Below are positions 1,001-10,810 of a DNA stretch of 10,810 nt, piece after piece. The notes under the pieces were generated by a model. The model worked only from the letters and a program-made list of their open reading frames with translations, was not told where the DNA came from and ran no database searches. Location: the IMG/VR virus record IMGVR_UViG_2917886563_000002; one strand, 5' to 3'. Position 1 is the first letter of the stretch, and each line of letters begins with the position of its first letter. The stretch is from a virus (taxonomy: Duplodnaviria; Heunggongvirae; Uroviricota; Caudoviricetes). Position numbers and translations under genes: made by a program.

Positions 1001-1507
1001 ATTAATAATAGCTTTATAAGCTCTGTGTAGCTCTCTGACGCAAGAAACAGCATTCAGGAAGGGAATCACCTTAGAAAAGGTGTTCTTTGCGTCATAATGT
1101 GTTTTATGAAGGATTCAGAGGTGTTTCATAACAGGAATGTATAGAGGATACTTTAATTAATTAAAAATAAGGGGTCTAAATGCTTCTCTAACAGCATTAA
1201 GCAGGGTAGGGAATGGAAACGCATTGTCTACATATAATAAGCTCACTACAGAGCTTTACAGAGCGTTTTTATAAAGTGACTCTCTATCTTATATCTACCA
1301 TTACCTTTTCATATACCTAACAAATACAAAATAAGCCCCTTAAATAAGCCTCTGGCGAGCTAAACAGCCATTACATAAGGGAATGTATTGCTTTTATCAA
1401 AATCTCGTTATAACGCGTTTTAGACAATAATGAAGAATGGCACTACACAGAAGAGCACGAGTTGCTCGTAAGTGCATGAAAAAGATCGATTTTTTTCGGA
1501 AGGGGTA

Positions 1508-1536
1508 TTGACAAACGTCTCTTTCTGTGCAATAAT
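1508..1536 (+). promoter_or_regulatory. Sigma70-type promoter candidate (TTGACA, 17-bp spacer, TGcAATAAT extended -10)
   Basis: ttgaca at 1508-1513; aataat at 1531-1536 preceded by tg at 1528-1529; AT-rich upstream; imperfect palindrome GCACGAGttgCTCGTaaGTGC at 1455-1475. Confidence 0.55.
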
Positions 1537-1590
1537 AGGAATTAGAGGGGACAGGAATAGATTCTTATCCTCTAAATAATTAAACCAATG

Positions 1591-1634
1591 CACCGCACTT
1601 TGAAGCCCAAGGCTTGCAAGGTGTTTTTTCTTTT
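1591..1634 (+). terminator. GC-rich stem-loop followed by T6CT4 run in the 5' leader of the first cargo gene (intrinsic terminator or attenuator candidate)
   Basis: CACCGCA...TGCaaGGTG pairing at 1591-1623 with inner AAGCC/GGCTT hairpin, then ttttttctttt at 1624-1634; lies between the 1508-1536 promoter and the SD at 1648-1654. Confidence 0.45.
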
Positions 1635-1661
1635 AACCAAATAGAATAAGGAGGCTAATTA

Positions 1662-1838
1662 ATGAAATATTTTACTCCACAGGATGTAGTAGAAGCCTGG
1701 AAACGTGGTGAGATCAACCGCTTTAAAGTAAGGATGTATAGAAACACCGCTCGCCGTTGTGGTTATCCAGAGCGTGAAAAATGTTTTGACGATGCACTGA
1801 AAATTATTGATGAACTGCGTAAAGCTGAGAAAGAATAA
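1662..1838 (+). CDS. Small basic hypothetical protein (58 aa), absent from the supplied ORF track
   Basis: ATG at 1662 preceded by AAGGAGG (1648-1654); hand translation MKYFTPQDVVEAWKRGEINRFKVRMYRNTARRCGYPEREKCFDDALKIIDELRKAEKE, stop TAA at 1836-1838. Confidence 0.6.
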   Translation: MKYFTPQDVVEAWKRGEINRFKVRMYRNTARRCGYPEREKCFDDALKIIDELRKAEKE

Positions 1839-1860
1839 TAGACAAGAGAAGGAGAAAACT

Positions 1861-2028
1861 ATGAGCGAAACTAAGAAACCAATTCCGCGCACTTACCTAC
1901 ACGTTGACCCTGAAATCTTCAAGGTTTTATTTGCTGAAGCCAAGAAAAGGCAAATTATGGTCAGTGATTTGATGTTAGAAATCATTACTGAAGCAGCAGA
2001 GAACATCAAACAAAAAAAGGGTAAGTGA
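1861..2028 (+). CDS. Small DNA-binding protein, ribbon-helix-helix-like (55 aa)
   Basis: ATG at 1861 with GAAGGAGA SD 5 nt upstream (the track's 1807 start lacks an SD). MSETKKPIPRTYLHVDPEIFKVLFAEAKKRQIMVSDLMLEIITEAAENIKQKKGK shows a polar/hydrophobic alternating strand (RTYLHV) followed by two helices, the RHH pattern. Confidence 0.6.
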   Translation: MSETKKPIPRTYLHVDPEIFKVLFAEAKKRQIMVSDLMLEIITEAAENIKQKKGK

Positions 2029-2079
2029 TCCTCATTCACTTTAGTAGCGCATTAAGCGTGATTTATAAGGAGATTTTTA

Positions 2080-2769
2080 ATGATTAATCAACTAACTTTT
2101 ACAAAACACTATGACACGTTTGATAATGTATCAAAGATTTATTCTGATAAATTCCCTCAAGGAAAAGATTTAGATCTATTACATATTGTGCTTTATTTTC
2201 GATTCCTTAGTTATCAGGAAAACAACCTTAATTGTTATGAAAGTCACGAAACATTAGCTAAGATTTTTAAGTCTTCAGCGTCAACAATTAAACGTAAGAT
2301 AAACGATCTTAAAGAGATGGGATTATTAGAAACATCCCCACATCCTGATCCGTATATTTCATCTTTGATTTACAATGCTCTCCCTCTCACAGATGCACAT
2401 ATTACTCCCCCAGGAGAATCATCACTCTCTGATCTTTCTGAGGCAGAAGAAGCACAGGAACAACCTAAAGGCCATAAACAGCCTTCTTTTGATGCTCTTG
2501 ATGATTGGGATACGCCTTTACCCTGGGAGATGGAAGAAACACCTGTTTCATCAAGTGAAAAGGTAGCTAATGATAATGAGGAGGATGTGTTAAAGAATTT
2601 TGCCTCTCTTATCATCCAGGAGAAACACACAAGAACAGGAGGAGCATCATTTATTGAGTTTGCAAATTCACTAGCTTGTAGATACGGGCTAAAACGACCA
2701 AATGGTATTGAGGCATATTTTGCTAAGAAACATCCCAAAGTATATGAAGACTTTGATATTCCATTTTAA
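2080..2769 (+). CDS. Hypothetical protein with N-terminal winged-HTH-like domain, acidic Pro-rich linker and C-terminal domain (229 aa)
   Basis: SD AAGGAG 7 nt upstream; N-terminus ...LHIVLYFRFLSYQENNLNCYESHETLAKIFKSSASTIKRKINDLKEMGLLE has the look of a wHTH of phage/plasmid replication or regulatory proteins. Confidence 0.8.
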   Translation: MINQLTFTKHYDTFDNVSKIYSDKFPQGKDLDLLHIVLYFRFLSYQENNLNCYESHETLAKIFKSSASTIKRKINDLKEMGLLETSPHPDPYISSLIYNALPLTDAHITPPGESSLSDLSEAEEAQEQPKGHKQPSFDALDDWDTPLPWEMEETPVSSSEKVANDNEEDVLKNFASLIIQEKHTRTGGASFIEFANSLACRYGLKRPNGIEAYFAKKHPKVYEDFDIPF

Positions 2770-2780
2770 TAAGGAGGGTT

Positions 2781-3059
2781 ATGATTCAATATTTAGTAAA
2801 AAATCAAGTAGACAGAATTCAGTGTAATGACACAGGAAAACGCATCTACGAGACACTTGCTTACCTCTATAAAGGAAAGCCAACACCGCTAAAATATAGC
2901 GATGTGTTACATCGAGCAGGTTGCTCTGAAGCTGGTTTAAAATTCTGGCTGAAACAGCTATCAGATTTCGGTGTTATAGAGATTAAAGAATTATCTTTCT
3001 CTACATTCAATCTCAAAAGATTAGATAAAGAAATAGACTTCATCTATTCCACTCTCTAA
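2781..3059 (+). CDS. Small winged-HTH-like protein (92 aa), paralogous in pattern to the N-domain of the 2080-2769 product
   Basis: SD AAGGAGGG immediately upstream; ...RIYETLAYLYKGKPTPLKYSDVLHRAGCSEAGLKFWLKQLSDFGVIEI. Confidence 0.7.
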   Translation: MIQYLVKNQVDRIQCNDTGKRIYETLAYLYKGKPTPLKYSDVLHRAGCSEAGLKFWLKQLSDFGVIEIKELSFSTFNLKRLDKEIDFIYSTL

Positions 3060-3100
3060 AATCTCTCTATGTAATTAAAATATAAAAGGAAAACATTATT

Positions 3101-3247
3101 ATGATAGTAGCTATGTATTGGTTATTGTTCTTTCTCACGTTAGAAGCATATTTCGGGGTGTTTTCCTTTAAAAGAAAAGGAAAAGTAAATGGCAAAAAGA
3201 AAAAAACAACGTTGTTAAGAAGATCGGTGATTCAGCTTCTCTTCTAA
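3101..3247 (+). CDS. Small predicted membrane peptide (48 aa): hydrophobic N-terminus, Lys/Arg-rich C-terminus; possibly the 5' part of a longer frameshifted gene
   Basis: ATG at 3101 with AAGGA about 10 nt upstream; hand translation MIVAMYWLLFFLTLEAYFGVFSFKRKGKVNGKKKKTTLLRRSVIQLLF; not in the ORF track. Confidence 0.4.
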   Translation: MIVAMYWLLFFLTLEAYFGVFSFKRKGKVNGKKKKTTLLRRSVIQLLF

Positions 3248-3360
3248 GTAAACCTAAATCTATTCTAAGACGCAAAGACTTTAAAGAGCTAGTTACGCTC
3301 ACCAAGCAAAATAGCGCCCCTGGCGAATGGAAAACAGAGATCATAGAACATTCTCCCTCT

Positions 3361-3600
3361 GTGCCTTGTGGAGATGAATTTAACGCCTTACAAGAAATCT
3401 TATCTTCAACACCTGGCGTATTCTGGAAACCCAGGAAAAGAAAAGAGTATATCGTTGATAGCTCTGATTTACGCAAATACCAGATTTTAGGATTTGAAGA
3501 TTATAATCACTACGTTGGTTATCTCGCTACCAATGGCCTAAATAATTTAGTTCCAGAATTCCAGATTTTAGATAATGCTGATCACTATGGAGACTTTTAA
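3361..3600 (+). CDS. Hypothetical protein fragment; this frame is open from 3172 with no ATG and is probably the downstream part of a gene starting at 3101
   Basis: Track ORF starts at GTG 3361 with no SD; the same frame is stop-free back to 3172 and overlaps the 3101-3247 ORF across an A-run at 3194-3206. Confidence 0.35.
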   Translation: MPCGDEFNALQEILSSTPGVFWKPRKRKEYIVDSSDLRKYQILGFEDYNHYVGYLATNGLNNLVPEFQILDNADHYGDF

Positions 3601-3601
3601 T

Positions 3602-3940
3602 ATGAACAAAAACACGTATGACACAATTTACTCACTAATTAATTATTATGAGGATGATTACCTCCTGCCTTTAAACCGCGCTGAACTTGAAGCATACAAA
3701 GAAAACACGCCAGCGGCACTAAATGAGGCGTTTAAACACTGGGATTTAGCTGTGAATGCCTTTGAGCACCTCTCTAAGCGTGTAGAGATGCTCTGTAAGC
3801 GCGAAAACGCATATCTGACAGCCGATCAGATATGGGAGCTATCAAACTGGATAGAAGATATTGAATCTGATGTTCGCTATGTAGGGGATGGCCTTGTTGA
3901 ACTCGCACAACGCTTAGGCGCTGCTATCACAGAAGAATAA
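3602..3940 (+). CDS. Acidic hypothetical protein (112 aa from ATG 3602; the track's 3575 start is less likely)
   Basis: GGAG at 3590-3593 sits 8 nt before ATG 3602; product MNKNTYDTIYSLINYYEDDYLLPLNRAELEAYKENTPAALNEAFKHWDLAVNAFEHLSK... is strongly net acidic by hand count (about 22 D/E against 10 K/R). Confidence 0.65.
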   Translation: MNKNTYDTIYSLINYYEDDYLLPLNRAELEAYKENTPAALNEAFKHWDLAVNAFEHLSKRVEMLCKRENAYLTADQIWELSNWIEDIESDVRYVGDGLVELAQRLGAAITEE

Positions 3941-3969
3941 AAAAAGCAACAAAAAAGTTGTAAAATATC

Positions 3970-3998
3970 TTGACATTTCATATATTGTATGTTAATAT
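3970..3998 (+). promoter_or_regulatory. Sigma70-type promoter candidate (TTGACA, 17-bp spacer, TGtTAATAT)
   Basis: ttgaca at 3970-3975; taatat at 3993-3998 preceded by tg at 3990-3991. Confidence 0.5.
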
Positions 3999-4132
3999 AA
4001 TTATATAGGGGTGATTATTTTTCCTTTATTGGTTCGATATTAAAAATTCTTCTTGTCGTTAAAGGGGAGTAAAATCTCCGCTCCCCGCTTCTCCTCCTTA
4101 AGTAATACTGTGTCATACCTCTTTTTTCCTTT

Positions 4133-4162
4133 GTTATGCATACATCTTGGAGTGTGCATAAC
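4133..4162. repeat. Inverted repeat GTTATGCA ... TGCATAAC (operator-like), with a third GTTATGCA copy at 4211-4218
   Basis: gttatgca at 4133-4140, tgcataac at 4155-4162, gttatgca at 4211-4218; adjacent palindrome CAACTTaaAAGTTG at 4217-4230. Confidence 0.6.
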
Positions 4163-4176
4163 ATAGGGTAATTACA

Positions 4177-4207
4177 AAGGCGGCTTTAAATGCTGCCTTT
4201 TATTTTG
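4177..4207 (+). terminator. Stem-loop followed by T-rich run (intrinsic terminator or attenuator candidate)
   Basis: AAGGCGGC (4177-4184) pairs with GCTGCCTT (4192-4199) with one G-T wobble, loop tttaaat, then ttattttg. Confidence 0.45.
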
Positions 4208-4268
4208 CCCGTTATGCAACTTAAAAGTTGTATTTCTTACTTTAAACAAGGTAACAAGGTTTATATAA

Positions 4269-4481
4269 ATGTTGTTCTTAAATGATAAAGAGCAAATCAT
4301 CAAGTATAAAGATGAAATGCTGCGAATTACTCCACAAATTACCGAAATGGTAGCTAAATACGCTGGGTGTTCTGTCGAGGAAGTAGAAAGATGTGTTGAA
4401 AAATATTTTTCTCCTTCTTCTCCGTCTACACCTTCCCTTAATGAATTAATCAAATTAAAAGCTAAGGAGATTACTAAATGA
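4269..4481 (+). CDS. Small acidic hypothetical protein (70 aa)
   Basis: Track ORF; weak SD (AAGG about 10 nt upstream); its stop overlaps the next start (ATGA at 4478-4481), suggesting translational coupling. Confidence 0.55.
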   Translation: MLFLNDKEQIIKYKDEMLRITPQITEMVAKYAGCSVEEVERCVEKYFSPSSPSTPSLNELIKLKAKEITK

Positions 4482-4840
4482 TTATTGATTTAGACACTCT
4501 TTTTCCAGTTCGAAAGACTTTCACAGATATTGTAAGTTACTGTACTGATCCGTTTGCTTCTGTAGAAAGCAAGGTTTTTGCTTCTCTTCCTGCTGATGTT
4601 GAATGCGGAGACTTGATCACCAGCACGGGCGCTAAATATGAATCAGGAGATGATATCTATGTTGTTATGAGTGAATTTGTAACGGCAGGAGAAAACAAGC
4701 CTGTAGATGTGCTACGTAGCAATGCTGGCCTTGTGTGCATTAAAGCTGATGCGCTGAATGCTGTAAGTGAAGCAGCAAAAACAGCATTAATTAAAAAAGG
4801 CTTCCAGCTTGAAGGCTTTAACACGGTTTTCACTTCTTAA
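4478..4840 (+). CDS. Hypothetical protein (120 aa)
   Basis: SD AAGGAGA at 4463-4469; overlapping stop-start with the upstream gene; no family recognised. Confidence 0.7.
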   Translation: MIIDLDTLFPVRKTFTDIVSYCTDPFASVESKVFASLPADVECGDLITSTGAKYESGDDIYVVMSEFVTAGENKPVDVLRSNAGLVCIKADALNAVSEAAKTALIKKGFQLEGFNTVFTS

Positions 4841-4858
4841 TAAAAGGAATAATAATAA

Positions 4859-5887
4859 ATGATTCTAGGTAATGATTACGTTGATTTAGCTCCGCTTTTC
4901 CAGACACACAGCACGCGTAACTTTCTGCTCTCTACCCTCGACTTCACTGATCCGGTGGGCGTTAGTTCTCATAAAGTAGCTGTTTCCCAGCTTGTCGAAA
5001 GCAACGAATCTCTCTTTAACAAAGAGACAAGCCGTTTTAGTTCTGAACACAATGTTACTAAGCGAGAACAAGGTAAAGAATGGCTGATTGAAATCCCGTA
5101 TTTTCTTCGTGAGGATGTGATCCGTCCTTCTGATGTTCAAGGCAAGCGTAAGCCTGGCACTGATTTTCAGGAAACACTTACTGATATCTATGCTGACTAT
5201 GTTGCTAAACACCACGTAGCGTATCAGCGTACAAAAGAGAGCGTGTTGGCGGCTTCTTTGTTCTCTGGCAAAACTTACACGCCTAAAACTGACGATGTGT
5301 TAATTGAGTGGGGCAAGCTGTTTAACGTATCAGCTATGAAAGCCACTGTTAACGCCTCCAGCACTGACACCACGAAGATTTTTAAAGAATTTGATCAGAT
5401 TGCTACTGACATTATCGAAAAAGCACAAAGCCAGGCGGCTGCTGTAGAGCGTATTGTTGTTTTCTGTAAGCCGGAAGCCTTCTCTGCAATTCGATTCTCT
5501 GCTGGTATGGCAAACGCATTCCAGTATGTAAGCCCACTGGAAGAGGGGAACGTTGTGTATCAGCGTCGTGACCTGCTACCAGGAGTGACAGCGTTCACTA
5601 TTCCAGGAACTAACATTGATGTTGTTAAACTGGTAGATCCGCTACACCTGGCACATATGACCGCAGACGCTGTAGCTGTGCCTAAATTCGCTAAAGGCTC
5701 TAACGTATATCAGAACATTTACGGGGCTGCTTCCAGCACTTTTGAACTGATTAATGCCGCTCCTGCTGAGGTGTATAGCTATAGCTATGAATCTTCTCGT
5801 GGTGATGCTGTTAACGTTGTTACAGAGAATAGCCAGATGGTGGTAAACCACGGCGTTGGCTTCTCCGTTCAAATCACTGTTAAATAA
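4859..5887 (+). CDS. Hypothetical protein (342 aa); candidate structural (capsid-like) protein, unverified
   Basis: SD AAGGA upstream; long ORF with protein-like composition and no signal peptide; followed by the strongest terminator in the window; paired with a 120-aa upstream gene. Confidence 0.8.
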   Translation: MILGNDYVDLAPLFQTHSTRNFLLSTLDFTDPVGVSSHKVAVSQLVESNESLFNKETSRFSSEHNVTKREQGKEWLIEIPYFLREDVIRPSDVQGKRKPGTDFQETLTDIYADYVAKHHVAYQRTKESVLAASLFSGKTYTPKTDDVLIEWGKLFNVSAMKATVNASSTDTTKIFKEFDQIATDIIEKAQSQAAAVERIVVFCKPEAFSAIRFSAGMANAFQYVSPLEEGNVVYQRRDLLPGVTAFTIPGTNIDVVKLVDPLHLAHMTADAVAVPKFAKGSNVYQNIYGAASSTFELINAAPAEVYSYSYESSRGDAVNVVTENSQMVVNHGVGFSVQITVK

Positions 5888-5905
5888 TATTTTAACGTGT
5901 AATAG

Positions 5906-5945
5906 AGGCGTGGCGTGTATTCACGCTTCGCCTTTTTTTATTTAT
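5906..5945 (+). terminator. Rho-independent terminator
   Basis: AGGCGTGGCGTG (5906-5917), loop tatt, CACGCTTCGCCT (5922-5933), then ttttttatttatttttt. Confidence 0.75.
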
Positions 5946-5973
5946 TTTTTAAGTTTTGAGAGGTGATTAAAAT

Positions 5974-6177
5974 ATGGAAGTGATTTTGAAATCAAAAAAT
6001 GGTGTACACGTACATTTAGATGCTAATGATTCTAGAGGCTTGTTAAATCTGAAATATCTATGTTCTCTTTTAGATGTTCCCTATGAAGGCGTAAAAGCCC
6101 GTATGTTCAGATTAAACGAGAGTATTGATCAGGCTCTACACCATTTCTTAAGCAAAGAAGGTGGTAAAAATGATTAA
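5974..6177 (+). CDS. Small hypothetical protein (67 aa)
   Basis: SD GAGGTGA 7 nt upstream of ATG 5974; stop 6 nt before the SD of the next gene. Confidence 0.6.
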   Translation: MEVILKSKNGVHVHLDANDSRGLLNLKYLCSLLDVPYEGVKARMFRLNESIDQALHHFLSKEGGKND

Positions 6178-6191
6178 TAAGGGGATTTTAA

Positions 6192-8024
6192 ATGTTAGAA
6201 ATTAACACTTCCAAGATTAAAAATACAGTAACATTTACTGTAGATAAAGACAGCTTGAAAAAAGCGAAAGACTCTATTACAGGCTTAAAGGAATTCGCAG
6301 AGAACATCAAGCCAGCTAAATTAAGATTTGATAGTGTCACTAAAGGCTATAAGAAAGCACAAAGCGAAGTAGACAAGATTGCTCAACAGAAAGCTAAAAC
6401 AGAAAAGCAAAATCAAAGAGCACAAGCTGCCGCAGCAAGAGCACAGGCAAGGCAACAGCAACAAATAGCAGCACGTAAGGAGAAGGCAAACTTAAAACTG
6501 TTAGACGTTGGATCAAGCATTAGTGCATTGCACCGCCTCTCTGTAGCGGAACAATACAAAGCTATTGCACAGGCTAGAGAGATAGCGAAACAATATGAGC
6601 AAGGGGCTATCTCGCTTGCACGTATGAATAGCCAGATGAAACGCTTACAACAGCAACAACGTAAGATTAATGGCAATAGAAAAACTCAATTAGCCCCCGT
6701 TAAGGGAGGAGGATCAGGGAATGCCGCCACTATGGGCGCTCTGTTATTTGGAGGCGCTACGGCTGCTGCTGGCGTGATGGCTGTTAGTAAAACCTCTGAA
6801 TTTATGGCTAACAGCTTTGCGAATGCTGAAACACAAGGCGAGCTAATTCAACGTGCAAGGCTTGGCGGTGTAGACGTTAACCAGATGTATAATATTACAG
6901 AATGGGCCTATAGAAACGGGATCGACTCTATGATGGGTGATCAAGGGGCTAGGAAATACCTGGATCAGATGAAAGATGTTAGGGAACGTGCCGCAAAATC
7001 CTATAGTGAAGCTGAATTAGTGAAAGATAAGAAAACAGGAAAATCTGAATGGAAAGGCGGTGATAACGCTATTAATGAACTTCTAAACATCGGTGTTATT
7101 AACAAAAGCGACCTTAAAAAATTTGCTGATAATCCAGCCGGATTAATTTCTAAGGCTGTTAATGGAATGATGAAAAAAGGGTTTTCAGACTCCCAAATTG
7201 GACAACGTTTAGAAGACCTGGGCGATGATTTGATGCTTACGTCAAAATATTGGCAACGTTCCGTTAAAGATGTACAAGAAAGCATTAACCAGCAAAAAGC
7301 CGCCGGACAATGGCTAACAGAAACACAGCAAGACTCTATTGTTAAATTCAGAGAACTAAACAGACAGCTTTCACAGCTTTCTGATGCAAGACAAGTAGCA
7401 TTCGTAGACGGCTTTATGAAATCTCTTGATCCAAAAGTAACGGAAGAGTTTATGAAAAACCTTTCTAATCTCACTCCGTATTTTACGAAGCTGGGAGAAG
7501 CTACAGGAAGTCTCTTTGAAGCCATTATGAAGATTGTAAACTGGTTTAATCGTAATGATGATAAGACAGATGCTATTCAGAAAAATATGGGTGATGCACC
7601 GCCACTATCTAACGATGGAATGAAACAGAATCTTTCTAACCTCGTTCCTGACCAATATAAAGGCGCTGGCACTGCAACAACTACACCTGATAATAGTCGT
7701 TCTCTCTTTAACACGATTAAGGGATTGCTTTTTGATGATAATTCTTCTGTGTCAGATGTAAAAATGTCAGTCAATGAAGCACCGATAACCAATCTCAAAC
7801 AGGGTGCTTTAAATAATCTTGCAATGACAACTCCGGCTTATAATTTATCTCCTGTGTTTAATCTGAATCCAACGTTTGAAGTGGTAACAGAGGTTCCGCT
7901 TACTATTAATTCTGACACGTCCAGATTAAGTGATTATGTGGATTTTACAGCGAGAGCAAGTCGGGATATCTTCTTGAAATCATTAACATTAACCAGCTTA
8001 TCAGGACAATCTAACGGCGGGTAA
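6192..8024 (+). CDS. Large hypothetical protein (610 aa): Gln/Ala-rich coiled-coil-like N-region, Gly/Ala hydrophobic segment, Asn/Ser/Thr-rich C-terminus; tape-measure-like or scaffold-like, unverified
   Basis: SD AAGGGGA upstream; segments ...KTEKQNQRAQAAAARAQARQQQQIAARKEKANLK... and ...GGGSGNAATMGALLFGGATAAAGVMAVS...; no signal peptide. Confidence 0.8.
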   Translation: MLEINTSKIKNTVTFTVDKDSLKKAKDSITGLKEFAENIKPAKLRFDSVTKGYKKAQSEVDKIAQQKAKTEKQNQRAQAAAARAQARQQQQIAARKEKANLKLLDVGSSISALHRLSVAEQYKAIAQAREIAKQYEQGAISLARMNSQMKRLQQQQRKINGNRKTQLAPVKGGGSGNAATMGALLFGGATAAAGVMAVSKTSEFMANSFANAETQGELIQRARLGGVDVNQMYNITEWAYRNGIDSMMGDQGARKYLDQMKDVRERAAKSYSEAELVKDKKTGKSEWKGGDNAINELLNIGVINKSDLKKFADNPAGLISKAVNGMMKKGFSDSQIGQRLEDLGDDLMLTSKYWQRSVKDVQESINQQKAAGQWLTETQQDSIVKFRELNRQLSQLSDARQVAFVDGFMKSLDPKVTEEFMKNLSNLTPYFTKLGEATGSLFEAIMKIVNWFNRNDDKTDAIQKNMGDAPPLSNDGMKQNLSNLVPDQYKGAGTATTTPDNSRSLFNTIKGLLFDDNSSVSDVKMSVNEAPITNLKQGALNNLAMTTPAYNLSPVFNLNPTFEVVTEVPLTINSDTSRLSDYVDFTARASRDIFLKSLTLTSLSGQSNGG

Positions 8025-8057
8025 TTCCCGCCATAACATTACAAGGAAATTATTATT

Positions 8058-8768
8058 ATGGCGACGGCGGGAATTTTAACCATACGTGCAGCAAATACTC
8101 CAGAACAACACGTTCAGGCTGTTTACAAAGCAGAACAAGATATAAACTCTACAAAAAACGAAAATAGCAAAGCTAATAAAACAAAAGGAGAAAATGGATT
8201 TGCTATTGTCACCAGTGGGCTGGCATCTTCTGTAAGTGACGTTTATGAAAATTATATGGCGTTATCCTTTGACAGTGTTGACGATGTGAACGTGAGACGT
8301 TCGGCAGATGTCACAAGCTATCCTGTAGAAAATGGAGCTAATGTATCGGATCACGTTCAAGTTAAGAATAATAAGTTTGCTCTTAAAGGGCGTATCTCTG
8401 AAACACCGATTAAAAGCGATCCTGGCTTGTTAAAGAGTGCAGGGGTGAACGGGAACAGAAGATCATTAGCTATCGACTACCTGAATCAGATTATGGACAG
8501 TAGACAGCCTTTTCTTCTTGTTACAGAAAATAAAACTTTTGAGAACGTTGTTTTAACAGGCATCGAATACACAGAAGAGGCAAGCGAATCTCTGGTATTT
8601 GATTTGGAATTTGAGCAAATCAGATTAGTTTCTTATGGCACTGTAAACACTGTAGCTATCAAAACACAGCCATCTAAGAACATCGGGGCTAATATGAAAA
8701 AACGTGTTAACACTGAAAAAACAAGTGAAGGTGAAGACACTATTACTCCTGCCTTTAAGCAGGAATAG
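8058..8768 (+). CDS. Hypothetical protein (236 aa); possible virion or tail-associated protein, unverified
   Basis: SD AAGGA 10 nt upstream; immediately follows the 610-aa gene; a stem-loop follows the stop. Confidence 0.75.
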   Translation: MATAGILTIRAANTPEQHVQAVYKAEQDINSTKNENSKANKTKGENGFAIVTSGLASSVSDVYENYMALSFDSVDDVNVRRSADVTSYPVENGANVSDHVQVKNNKFALKGRISETPIKSDPGLLKSAGVNGNRRSLAIDYLNQIMDSRQPFLLVTENKTFENVVLTGIEYTEEASESLVFDLEFEQIRLVSYGTVNTVAIKTQPSKNIGANMKKRVNTEKTSEGEDTITPAFKQE

Positions 8769-8809
8769 CCGTAAACGCCTCTAAAACGCTCTGTAACGAT
8801 GTAATTATA

Positions 8810-8842
8810 AAAGAGGCTACCAATCTATGTTGAAGCCTCTTT
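8810..8842. terminator. Stem-loop between convergent genes (bidirectional terminator candidate)
   Basis: AAAGAGGCT (8810-8818) and AGCCTCTTT (8834-8842), 15-nt loop; T/A-rich flanks on both strands; lies between the 8058-8768 gene and the minus-strand recombinase. Confidence 0.4.
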
Positions 8843-8849
8843 ATTGCGT

Positions 8850-9848
8850 CTATGGCGTTGTTTTACGCCTTAAATTTGATTTTTTATTGATTGATAAGCC
8901 TTTCTCTATTTCAGGGTAGCGTAGAAGCTCAATATATTTTTTAAGCTCTACTGGAGAAGCTGCATTCTTGCTATATGTGCGGAATGTCTCTGTATTGCCG
9001 CGTGTATGGCCCAGGAGAAGGGCGATCCTGTCTTCTGGAATTTGATTTCGATCAAGAAGCTGTGCTACTCCGTGTCTCAGAGAATGAAACACCTTCCTTT
9101 CTGTTCCCTTTTCCCCTAAAGCCTTTCGTTTAGCTCTTGTAAATCTCTGCGTGTGCCACGTGGAACGTTTACCATCAGCACGCTCTGTAATGCTGGCGTG
9201 ATAGAACAAAAAGCCATTGTGAGGCTTTTCACGAAGAGATAACACCAACGGAGTGATAAGGCTATGTACAGGCACAAGACGTGCCGCAGCTTTCGTTTTT
9301 CCCTGTGTGATTTCAAAACACAGCACACCTTCGATCTCTTTCACATCGTCTATTGTGAGACTTGCTATCTCATTGATCCGCATACCTGTATATAAACCGA
9401 TAAGACACAAAGCCGTCATTTCTTTGTTTTCTGCTGAATTACCGGAAAATACTTGCAACACCTGCAATAGCTCTTTGTTAGAAAATGCCTCATAGCTCTC
9501 TCTACTTTGTGCCACATCAAGCCTATGCCCTCGCCAGGGGGAGAGCGCCCTTTCTGGCGCATCGTGGTAACGTGATGAAGCTAACTCCCATAGCTGGGCC
9601 ATTGGGCTGATATAATTTGCAATTGATTGTTGTGAAAGGGTTTTTTGCATGCGTTCTATCCAGCCTGTAACAGTGGTGCGGCTCACATCTTGCAATGCAA
9701 TATCAGGCTTTTTACGGTAGGAGAGAAACATCTCTACCGCTTTTCTTGCCTTAGCTAAAGTGGCTGGCTTCTTCTTCGTGCTGTTAATTGTCAGGTAGAT
9801 TTCAAGAATTTTAAGCAATGACGGACACGAAGACGCTGTATCTTGCAT
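8850..9848 (-). CDS. Tyrosine site-specific recombinase (integrase), 332 aa
   Basis: Catalytic-domain signature in order: Arg in ...LYTGMRINEIASL..., H-x-x-R in ...FHSLRHGVAQLL..., ...LLGHTRG..., and Tyr in ...TFRTYSK...; N-terminal region ...LEIYLTINSTKKKPATLAKARKAVEMFLSY... resembles a core-binding domain. Confidence 0.9.
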   Translation of the reverse strand: MQDTASSCPSLLKILEIYLTINSTKKKPATLAKARKAVEMFLSYRKKPDIALQDVSRTTVTGWIERMQKTLSQQSIANYISPMAQLWELASSRYHDAPERALSPWRGHRLDVAQSRESYEAFSNKELLQVLQVFSGNSAENKEMTALCLIGLYTGMRINEIASLTIDDVKEIEGVLCFEITQGKTKAAARLVPVHSLITPLVLSLREKPHNGFLFYHASITERADGKRSTWHTQRFTRAKRKALGEKGTERKVFHSLRHGVAQLLDRNQIPEDRIALLLGHTRGNTETFRTYSKNAASPVELKKYIELLRYPEIEKGLSINKKSNLRRKTTP

Positions 9849-9925
9849 TCTGGTAGCTGTTTTGGCGTATTTAGCCTTACTTCGTAACAGTTCCAGCGTG
9901 TTCTCTATTGTGCTGTTTACAGGAG

Positions 9926-10810
9926 TGATCTTGACCCGCTATCTCCGGACCGCTTTTGTATCTTAAGTTAACGATGCCCGCTGCCGCCGGTATTCCCTCG
10001 GAGAGTAATATCCCAGCGCGCTGTGCGGGTGGTTTTCATTGTAATGCGTGAACGCTGCTGCAAGGTTTTGCAGGGCTGTTCTCACATCCGGTTTTGGCAT
10101 GAACGCGATATAGTCTTCTTTCATCGTCTTCACGAACCGTTCGGCCATGCCATTACTCTGCGGACTGCTCACCGCTGTTGTACAGGGTTCAAGATTCAGC
10201 TCTCTGGCGAACCTCCGCGTTTCATGCGCAGTATACGCTGAACCGTTATCCGTCAACCACTGCACTGGTGTGTCCGGCAACCTGTCGCCGAAGCGCTTTT
10301 CCACCGACCTCAGCATCACATCCTGTACGGTCGAACTGTCGTAGCCTCCCGTGCTCGCTGCCCAGTCTATGGCCTCTCTGTCGCAGCAGTCCAGCGCGAA
10401 CGTCACCCGCAGTTTTTCACCGTTGTCGCAGCCGAACTCGAAGCCGTCTGAACACCAGCGCATATTGCTTTCTGCCACCGCGATTTTTCCCTTGTGTTCA
10501 CGCTTCGGTCGCTCTGGTTTGTCATGCAACAACAACAGGTTATGCTCGCTCATTATCCTGTAAAGTCGTTTGGCGTTCACCGGTGGCTCTCCCTCAGTGC
10601 GACGTTGCTTGCGCAGGATGCCCCACACGCGTCGATAACCATAACTCGGCATATCGCTGATGATATCGAGGATATCCGTCAGTATTTCAGCGTCTGCTTC
10701 GTCATTACGCCGGTTACAGCGCCTGTCCTGCCAGTCGGCAGAACGGTTAACTCGCAGTGACAGCTGCGCACGCGACACGCCCATGGTGCGGCTGACCAGG
10801 GCTATTCCCC
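9926..10810 (-). mobile_element. IS3-family insertion sequence, IS2-like, partial (OrfA side runs off the right window edge)
   Basis: Minus-strand end reads ...GGCGGCAGCGGGCATCGTTAACTTAAGATACAAAAGCGGTCCGGAGATAGCGGGTCAAGATCA, the same pattern as the IS2 right end as recalled; G+C rises at 9926; encodes an IS2 OrfB-like transposase. Confidence 0.88.
9963..10784 (-). CDS. IS3-family (IS2 group) transposase OrfB, DDE catalytic domain
   Basis: ...[13 protein letters not shown]...RWCSDGFEF...[13 protein letters not shown]...[11 protein letters not shown]...[11 protein letters not shown]...[12 protein letters not shown]; D, D and E motif residues present; frame continues upstream past 10784 toward the window edge. 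Confidence 0.92.

Follow-up and report, generated by a model that had tools for sequence, protein, structure and literature searches.

Reading frames that meet at a run of adenines recall several described systems, with which the locus analysed here, at positions 3101 to 3600 of a 10,810-nt stretch of viral DNA (the whole of which we call the window), can be compared. It resembles −1 frameshifting of the dnaX type, on A AAA AAG, in its A- and Lys-rich AAA AAG AAA AAA and in an SD-like AGGA upstream; unlike that system it has neither an in-frame heptamer nor a downstream stem-loop, its two-frame layout is not conserved, the AGGA belongs to the next gene as its ribosome-binding site, and the protein of the relatives is read in one frame. 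With poly-A and poly-T contingency loci it shares a tract that lies just past a start codon and varies in length among assemblies, but the tract is short, only error-prone assemblies show the variation, and the sampled complete genomes are uniformly in frame. It is also like the overlapping, probably coupled gene pairs of phages and islands: the wild-type small ORF ends 20–29 nt past the next start, and the SD of the next gene lies inside the small ORF in every lineage examined, the coupling being putative. Here the difference is that the small peptide is conserved in presence, hydrophobicity and position, and not in sequence. Finally, flow-based platforms (Ion Torrent, 454) miscall homopolymers and so leave false frameshifts in draft genomes; in Ion Torrent sequencing the length of a homopolymer is inferred from signal strength, and runs as long as the present one are known to be miscalled. 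The locus agrees with such cases in a discrepancy of one base in a run of six to seven, in the use of Ion Torrent, in otherwise identical sequences elsewhere that are in frame, and in an annotation pipeline pushed to an odd rescue call of 125 aa from an ATC at 3223; it differs in that a real mutation, private to this strain, keeps some probability.

Our reading is that the apparent split ORF consists of two ordinary overlapping genes and one extra A, most likely an Ion Torrent error. The features concerned, all on the + strand of the window, are:

3087–3090, + strand: AGGA, the SD-like motif of the small ORF, 10 nt before ATG 3101 (read from the sequence)
3101–3247, + strand: small hydrophobic-peptide ORF with an ATG start, 48 aa in this contig, MIVAMYWLLFFLTLEAYFGVFSFKRKGKVNGKKKKTTLLRRSVIQLLF
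3172–3600, + strand: second open frame, opening after TAA 3169–3171, with its stop at 3598–3600
3178–3181, + strand: AGGA, the SD motif of the 136-aa gene, inside the small ORF and 7 nt before ATG 3189
3189–3218, + strand: start of the 136-aa gene, with ATG 3189–3191 in the third frame; here a 9-codon stub, MAKRKKQRC and a stop
3200–3206, + strand: poly-A run, A7 here versus A6 in relatives, within the overlap of the two genes
3205–3600, + strand: body of the 136-aa gene, codons 6–136 and the stop, without a start codon in this contig

One gene encodes a hydrophobic peptide of ~39 aa from ATG 3101, and the other, of 136 aa, starts at ATG 3189 with the SD at 3178–3181, 29 nt short of where the small gene ends. 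In this contig one A too many, 12 nt into the larger gene, gives A7 at 3200–3206 where relatives have A6. The extra base cuts the 136-aa gene to its nine-codon stub, leaving the remaining 131 codons open and without a start, and with it the small peptide grows from 39 aa to 48. Together these effects give the locus the look of a split ORF for which a −1 shift seems to be required. The extra A itself is most likely an Ion Torrent homopolymer over-call that passed into the draft assembly rather than something that the organism has. The split ORF is no real biological feature; the extra A is spurious or, at most, private. The result is chiefly a correction, in which a tempting recoding candidate turns out to be a homopolymer in an Ion Torrent draft that is off by one base, and its useful by-product is a conserved hydrophobic ORF of 34–39 aa that overlaps the start of the next gene.

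The two overlapping genes and their relatives

The window corresponds to the complete contig PDHX01000033.1, in assembly GCA_004745245.1. An earlier note on this DNA had described an SD-led ORF of 48 aa at 3101–3247, and the ORF is indeed present, its product being hydrophobic at the N-terminus and rich in Lys in the tail. The same note had given an SD-less GTG at 3361 as the sole start candidate of the frame 3172–3600; this GTG is the earliest ATG, GTG or TTG of that frame, but the AGGA-led ATG at 3189, in the third frame, had been missed. We also confirmed that the two frames overlap at caaaaagaaaaaaac (3193–3207; A5 G A7), which the 3101 frame reads as AAA AAG AAA AAA, and that the frame breaks at the A-run. 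The gene table of the contig lists a product of 125 aa at 3223–3600, with a non-canonical ATC start and stored with an initial Met, and this call looks like a homology-guided rescue of a frameshifted gene. Rfam gave no match in the window, and scans of the window for promoters and terminators were at chance level only.

The frame that is open from 3172 is genuine coding sequence and not a chance ORF, since it matches a 136-aa protein (P0001) at E = 5.5e-83 with 98% identity and has 430 homologues at E ≤ 0.01. P0001, the nearest intact homologue, comprises 633 member sequences and has the N-terminus MAKRKNNVVKKIG / MAKRKNNVVKKIGDSASLL; its start, MAKRKNNVV, is what ATG 3189 yields when read with A6 instead of A7. 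The homologues examined start at the ATG equivalent to 3189, with the pattern M-A/S/G-K/R-K/R. Those of Klebsiella and Enterobacter are 128–137 aa long and begin M-S/G-K/R-K-E/Q-R-N, and complete E. coli genomes in RefSeq carry a 411-nt CDS, annotated 'hypothetical protein', from the equivalent ATG. The AGGA at 3178–3181 is unchanged in all aligned E. coli relatives. By comparison with these homologues, ATG 3189 is shown to be the true start of the downstream gene, and the AGGA upstream reads as its ribosome-binding site and not as a stimulator of frameshifting. A hydrophobic N-terminus is absent from the homologues of the 136-aa protein in the family alignment. When both frames are aligned to homologues, a check that the earlier note had proposed, the one protein found elsewhere corresponds to the 136-aa gene alone, without the small ORF.

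Sequence searches of Pfam, PHROGs and the PDB found no relative of the 136-aa protein, and its AlphaFold model (mean pLDDT 56.8) is too poor for use. DNA and protein searches of a phage collection with the region gave no match. A scan of species-representative genomes yielded one locus, and the diversity of lineages was taken from protein look-ups instead.

The small ORF was compared in five lineages, namely E. coli, the Klebsiella type, the Enterobacter type and the metagenomic loci L026 and L028. In every lineage examined it encodes 34–39 aa with a hydrophobic N-terminus of ~17–20 residues and a basic tail, starts with ATG behind a GGAAA-type SD (GGAAA or GGGAAA in the Klebsiella, Enterobacter and metagenomic lineages, the counterpart of AGGA 3087–3090), lies in frame +2 relative to the 136-aa gene, and ends 20–29 nt past the ATG of that gene. 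Its wild-type extents are 3101–3218 in the window, 6916–7020 in L019, 6916–7029 in L022 and 1413–1520 in L028. With A6 it is 38–39 aa long and ends at the TAA equivalent to 3216–3218; the extra A swaps the tail ending KKKKQRC for one ending KKKKTTLLRRSVIQLLF, by which the peptide grows from 39 to 48 aa. Gene callers report the small ORF in many assemblies, as 37–39 aa ending GKKKKQRC, and PGAP gives it no annotation in any of the four complete RefSeq E. coli genomes that we read at this position. The residues of the peptide evolve fast, and because a codon-level comparison gave no clear signal of purifying selection, the case for the small ORF rests on its conserved presence, position and composition. 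By these comparisons the 48-aa ORF is a separate gene for a small hydrophobic peptide and not the N-terminal half of the 136-aa gene, each of the two genes having a start codon and an SD of its own that are kept in diverged relatives. The peptide may be a membrane peptide, or its ORF a translational-coupling leader. The correct annotation is a 136-aa gene from 3189 and a separate small gene from 3101.

Length of the A-run across assemblies

Four copies of the locus from complete genomes were aligned, and all of them read A5-G-A6, versus A5-G-A7 in the window. A regular-expression count over the loci that we fetched found A6 in ten and A4 in one Logan contig, with A7 confined to the window and its own copies; apart from that contig and the window, every Escherichia locus that we read across a complete start region has A5-G-A6. 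The exact 111-mer of the window around the run occurs in no complete genome. The reading frame was surveyed in an even sample taken through the ranked list of the 302 complete E. coli genomes with the gene; since the full-length hits span 411 or 408 nt in 59 out of 59, all of the sampled complete genomes are in frame.

Three other assemblies, located by look-ups of the window's own neighbouring protein, differ from it by a single base. L035 (Logan SRR8835208) aligns over 5,190 nt with 1340–6530 of the window and L036 (Logan SRR6053163) over 2,187 nt with 2014–4201, while 1,679 nt were fetched of L034 (VATT01000052.1, in GCA_005781225.1); each alignment has 0 mismatches and one gap, at 3200, and the gene is called as 136 aa in all of L034, L035 and L036. 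The discrepancy is restricted to the length of the run, sequence that is otherwise identical being in frame elsewhere. The rescue call of 125 aa from 3223 is recorded for this contig alone, and no record of a 48-aa product was found anywhere. The two observations that the earlier note had named as telling against a split gene, namely homologues with two separate genes that have their own starts and a different length of the A-run that merges the frames, were therefore both made.

The accession PDHX00000000 belongs to Escherichia cryptic clade II strain E4736, from sediment of the intertidal zone in Hong Kong (PMC6639607). The sequence of E4736 comes from Ion Torrent single-end reads of 35–400 nt, at a coverage of about 100x, from which MIRA and SPAdes built the assembly (PMC6639607); the read accession is SRX3200104. 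An Ion Torrent error is expected to show itself as one base over-called in an A6 run while the sequence otherwise equals that of other assemblies, and the platform used for E4736 is one that is biased towards errors of this kind. Counting against an artefact is the stated 100x coverage, which usually corrects random, though not systematic, homopolymer errors. From these observations, we infer that the extra base is an error rather than a private mutation.

Run lengths of A4, A5 and A10 were found in draft, Logan or metagenome assemblies only; the A5 allele, P0007, directly encodes a fusion of the small ORF and the 136-aa gene. A second A-rich site lies at 3422–3436 (ccc agg aaa aga aaa gag), where several draft-derived proteins are frameshifted from KPRKRKEY to KPRKEKSI. 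The proteins listed for variants at this site are P0007, P0008, P0010 and P0012, the last of which differs in having a compensated double frameshift close to the N-terminus. Within O111:H11, the complete genome of strain 88.0502 has an intact gene whereas the draft record of another strain, CVM9545, is frameshifted, a contrast which suggests that many of the second-site variants are sequencing artefacts. A complete RefSeq genome, that of ES5, carries a frameshift elsewhere in the gene and the PGAP label 'frameshifted', which shows that such alleles occur in finished assemblies too.

Alternative readings of the extra A

The earlier note had proposed that a −1 shift on the A-run, by programmed ribosomal frameshifting or by transcriptional slippage, joins the 48-aa ORF to the second frame in a membrane-anchored fusion of ~165 aa. 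It is well established that in E. coli A-rich sequence makes tRNA-Lys slip readily, and the A5 allele of P0007 encodes such a fusion directly, but we regard this proposal as extremely unlikely. The geometry of a −1 fusion exists only because of the extra A: with A6 the larger gene is +1, not −1, relative to the small ORF and has its own SD and ATG, and the shift that the window would actually need is +1 from the 9-codon stub, which equals the removal of one A. The two-frame arrangement is seen in this contig only, the homologues being single-frame proteins of 128–137 aa with their own ATG, none of them with the hydrophobic N-terminus, so that the predicted ~165-aa product is left unsupported. 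The codons of the 3101 frame, GGC AAA AAG AAA AAA ACA, contain no X XXY YYZ heptamer in the zero frame. Two candidates, C AAA AAG (3193–3199) and G AAA AAA (3199–3205), fail as heptamers because the P-site tRNA would not re-pair at the first position, and slippage of a single tRNA on AAA AAA is the sole mode that is still conceivable. Nor does the RNA downstream fold better than shuffled sequence: 3205–3275 folds at −8.2 kcal/mol versus a shuffle mean of −8.75 (z = 0.21). As regards the transcript, A7 is too short a run for efficient slippage of E. coli RNA polymerase; transcriptional slippage calls for ~9 or more A or T in a conserved out-of-frame layout, and what we find is A7 in the window and A6, in frame, in relatives. 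Low-level spontaneous slippage on lysine codons could take place at any such run, and there is no sign that this site is a programmed one. The sequence lends no support to programmed recoding, and of the options that the earlier note had listed, a homopolymer sequencing error and a decayed gene survive whereas recoding and slippage do not.

Should the extra A be real, it would be a recent slipped-strand insertion from A6 to A7, private to E4736. It would inactivate the 136-aa gene and give the small peptide a changed tail, within the wider decay of an island that is immobilised. Indels in homopolymers are a very common class of spontaneous mutation, ES5 shows that a frameshifted allele can stand in a complete RefSeq genome, and genuine decay would be tolerated because the island of E4736 is already damaged, its integrase lacking residues 1–63 after truncation by an IS2-like element and the contig being bounded by IS elements. 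We nevertheless judge a private mutation to be unlikely, though the next most probable reading after an artefact, given that over 5.2 kb the window departs from other assemblies by one base and is otherwise identical to them, that this base lies exactly in the context where the platform used makes errors, and that the allele occurs in no other record of the collection. It is conceivable, too, that the poly-A tract is a hypermutable contingency switch, which by phase variation would switch between presence and absence of the 136-aa protein and exchange one tail of the small peptide for another; A4, A5, A6, A7 and A10 are all present among the assemblies, and a tract just past the start codon is typical of such switches. 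This seems to us very improbable: the off-length alleles all come from draft, Logan or metagenome assemblies, the sampled complete genomes are in frame without exception and on and off lengths are not both seen in reliable sequence, A6–A7 is short for a poly-A contingency tract, and Enterobacter-type homologues have no tract at this position, so that the family as a whole does not conserve it. Were the overlap of the two genes nonetheless to hold a slippage-prone switch, for which we see very little chance, a single tract would have three protein outputs. A6 would give the 39-aa peptide and the 136-aa protein; A7 the 48-aa peptide and no 136-aa protein, save for low-level rescue by +1 shifting or slippage; and A5 the membrane-anchored fusion. 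The reading that we prefer is thus still that of two ordinary overlapping genes with an over-called A.

The phage-like island

The locus forms part of a small integrative, chromosomal phage-like island of Escherichia at 2080–9848 of the window, related loci being L001 and L019–L024. Its genes run in the order HTH replication initiator (2080–2769), a 92-aa gene, the small ORF, the 136-aa gene, genes of 112, 70 and 120 aa, a lambda-E-type major capsid protein (342 aa), a 67-aa gene, a 610-aa protein, a Dit-like baseplate protein and a tyrosine integrase, the 136-aa gene sitting between the replication module and the capsid module. For the most part E. coli, Klebsiella and Enterobacter share this order. 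The replication gene differs in the E. coli, Klebsiella and Enterobacter loci, where it encodes 482–485 aa, and the Klebsiella loci that we read are without the Dit-like gene. The capsid protein of the island shares 22–25% identity with capsids of rV5-like phages and of ~95-kb Pseudomonas myophages, and the 610-aa protein has 27% identity, over 93% of its length, to a Phapecoctavirus 'tape measure' protein. The island is a possible satellite, not yet described, of large virulent myophages. No account of the island family came up in literature searches; the family is little described and is common to Escherichia, Klebsiella and Enterobacter.

The integrase gene of the window (8850–9938, − strand) aligns in a single frame from residue 64 of a full-length relative of 425 aa, the first 63 residues being gone, and an IS2-like element (rve orfB) at 9963–10810, which runs to the end of the contig, truncates it. 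The island is probably immobilised in E4736. A second frameshift was sought in the integrase and not found, the gene being IS-truncated in a single frame. At the left end, positions 1–520 of the window hold an IS911-like element of the IS3 family, with orfA at 159–470 (− strand), while orfB begins here and continues beyond the contig end. We rejected the idea that the contig is a circle joined up through one IS, given that the two ends differ (IS911-like orfA versus IS2-like orfB) and have no terminal overlap.

In E. coli Res13-Lact-PEA14-20 (L001, 755–13103; NZ_CP062871.1) the island lies between the tRNA-Thr that adjoins proA and the pao genes, with the integrase at the far, pao-side end and a small separate 'recombinase family protein' towards the tRNA. 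In Klebsiella and Enterobacter, too, the loci have a second short gene with a Phage_integrase domain, followed by ~1.6 kb without called genes.
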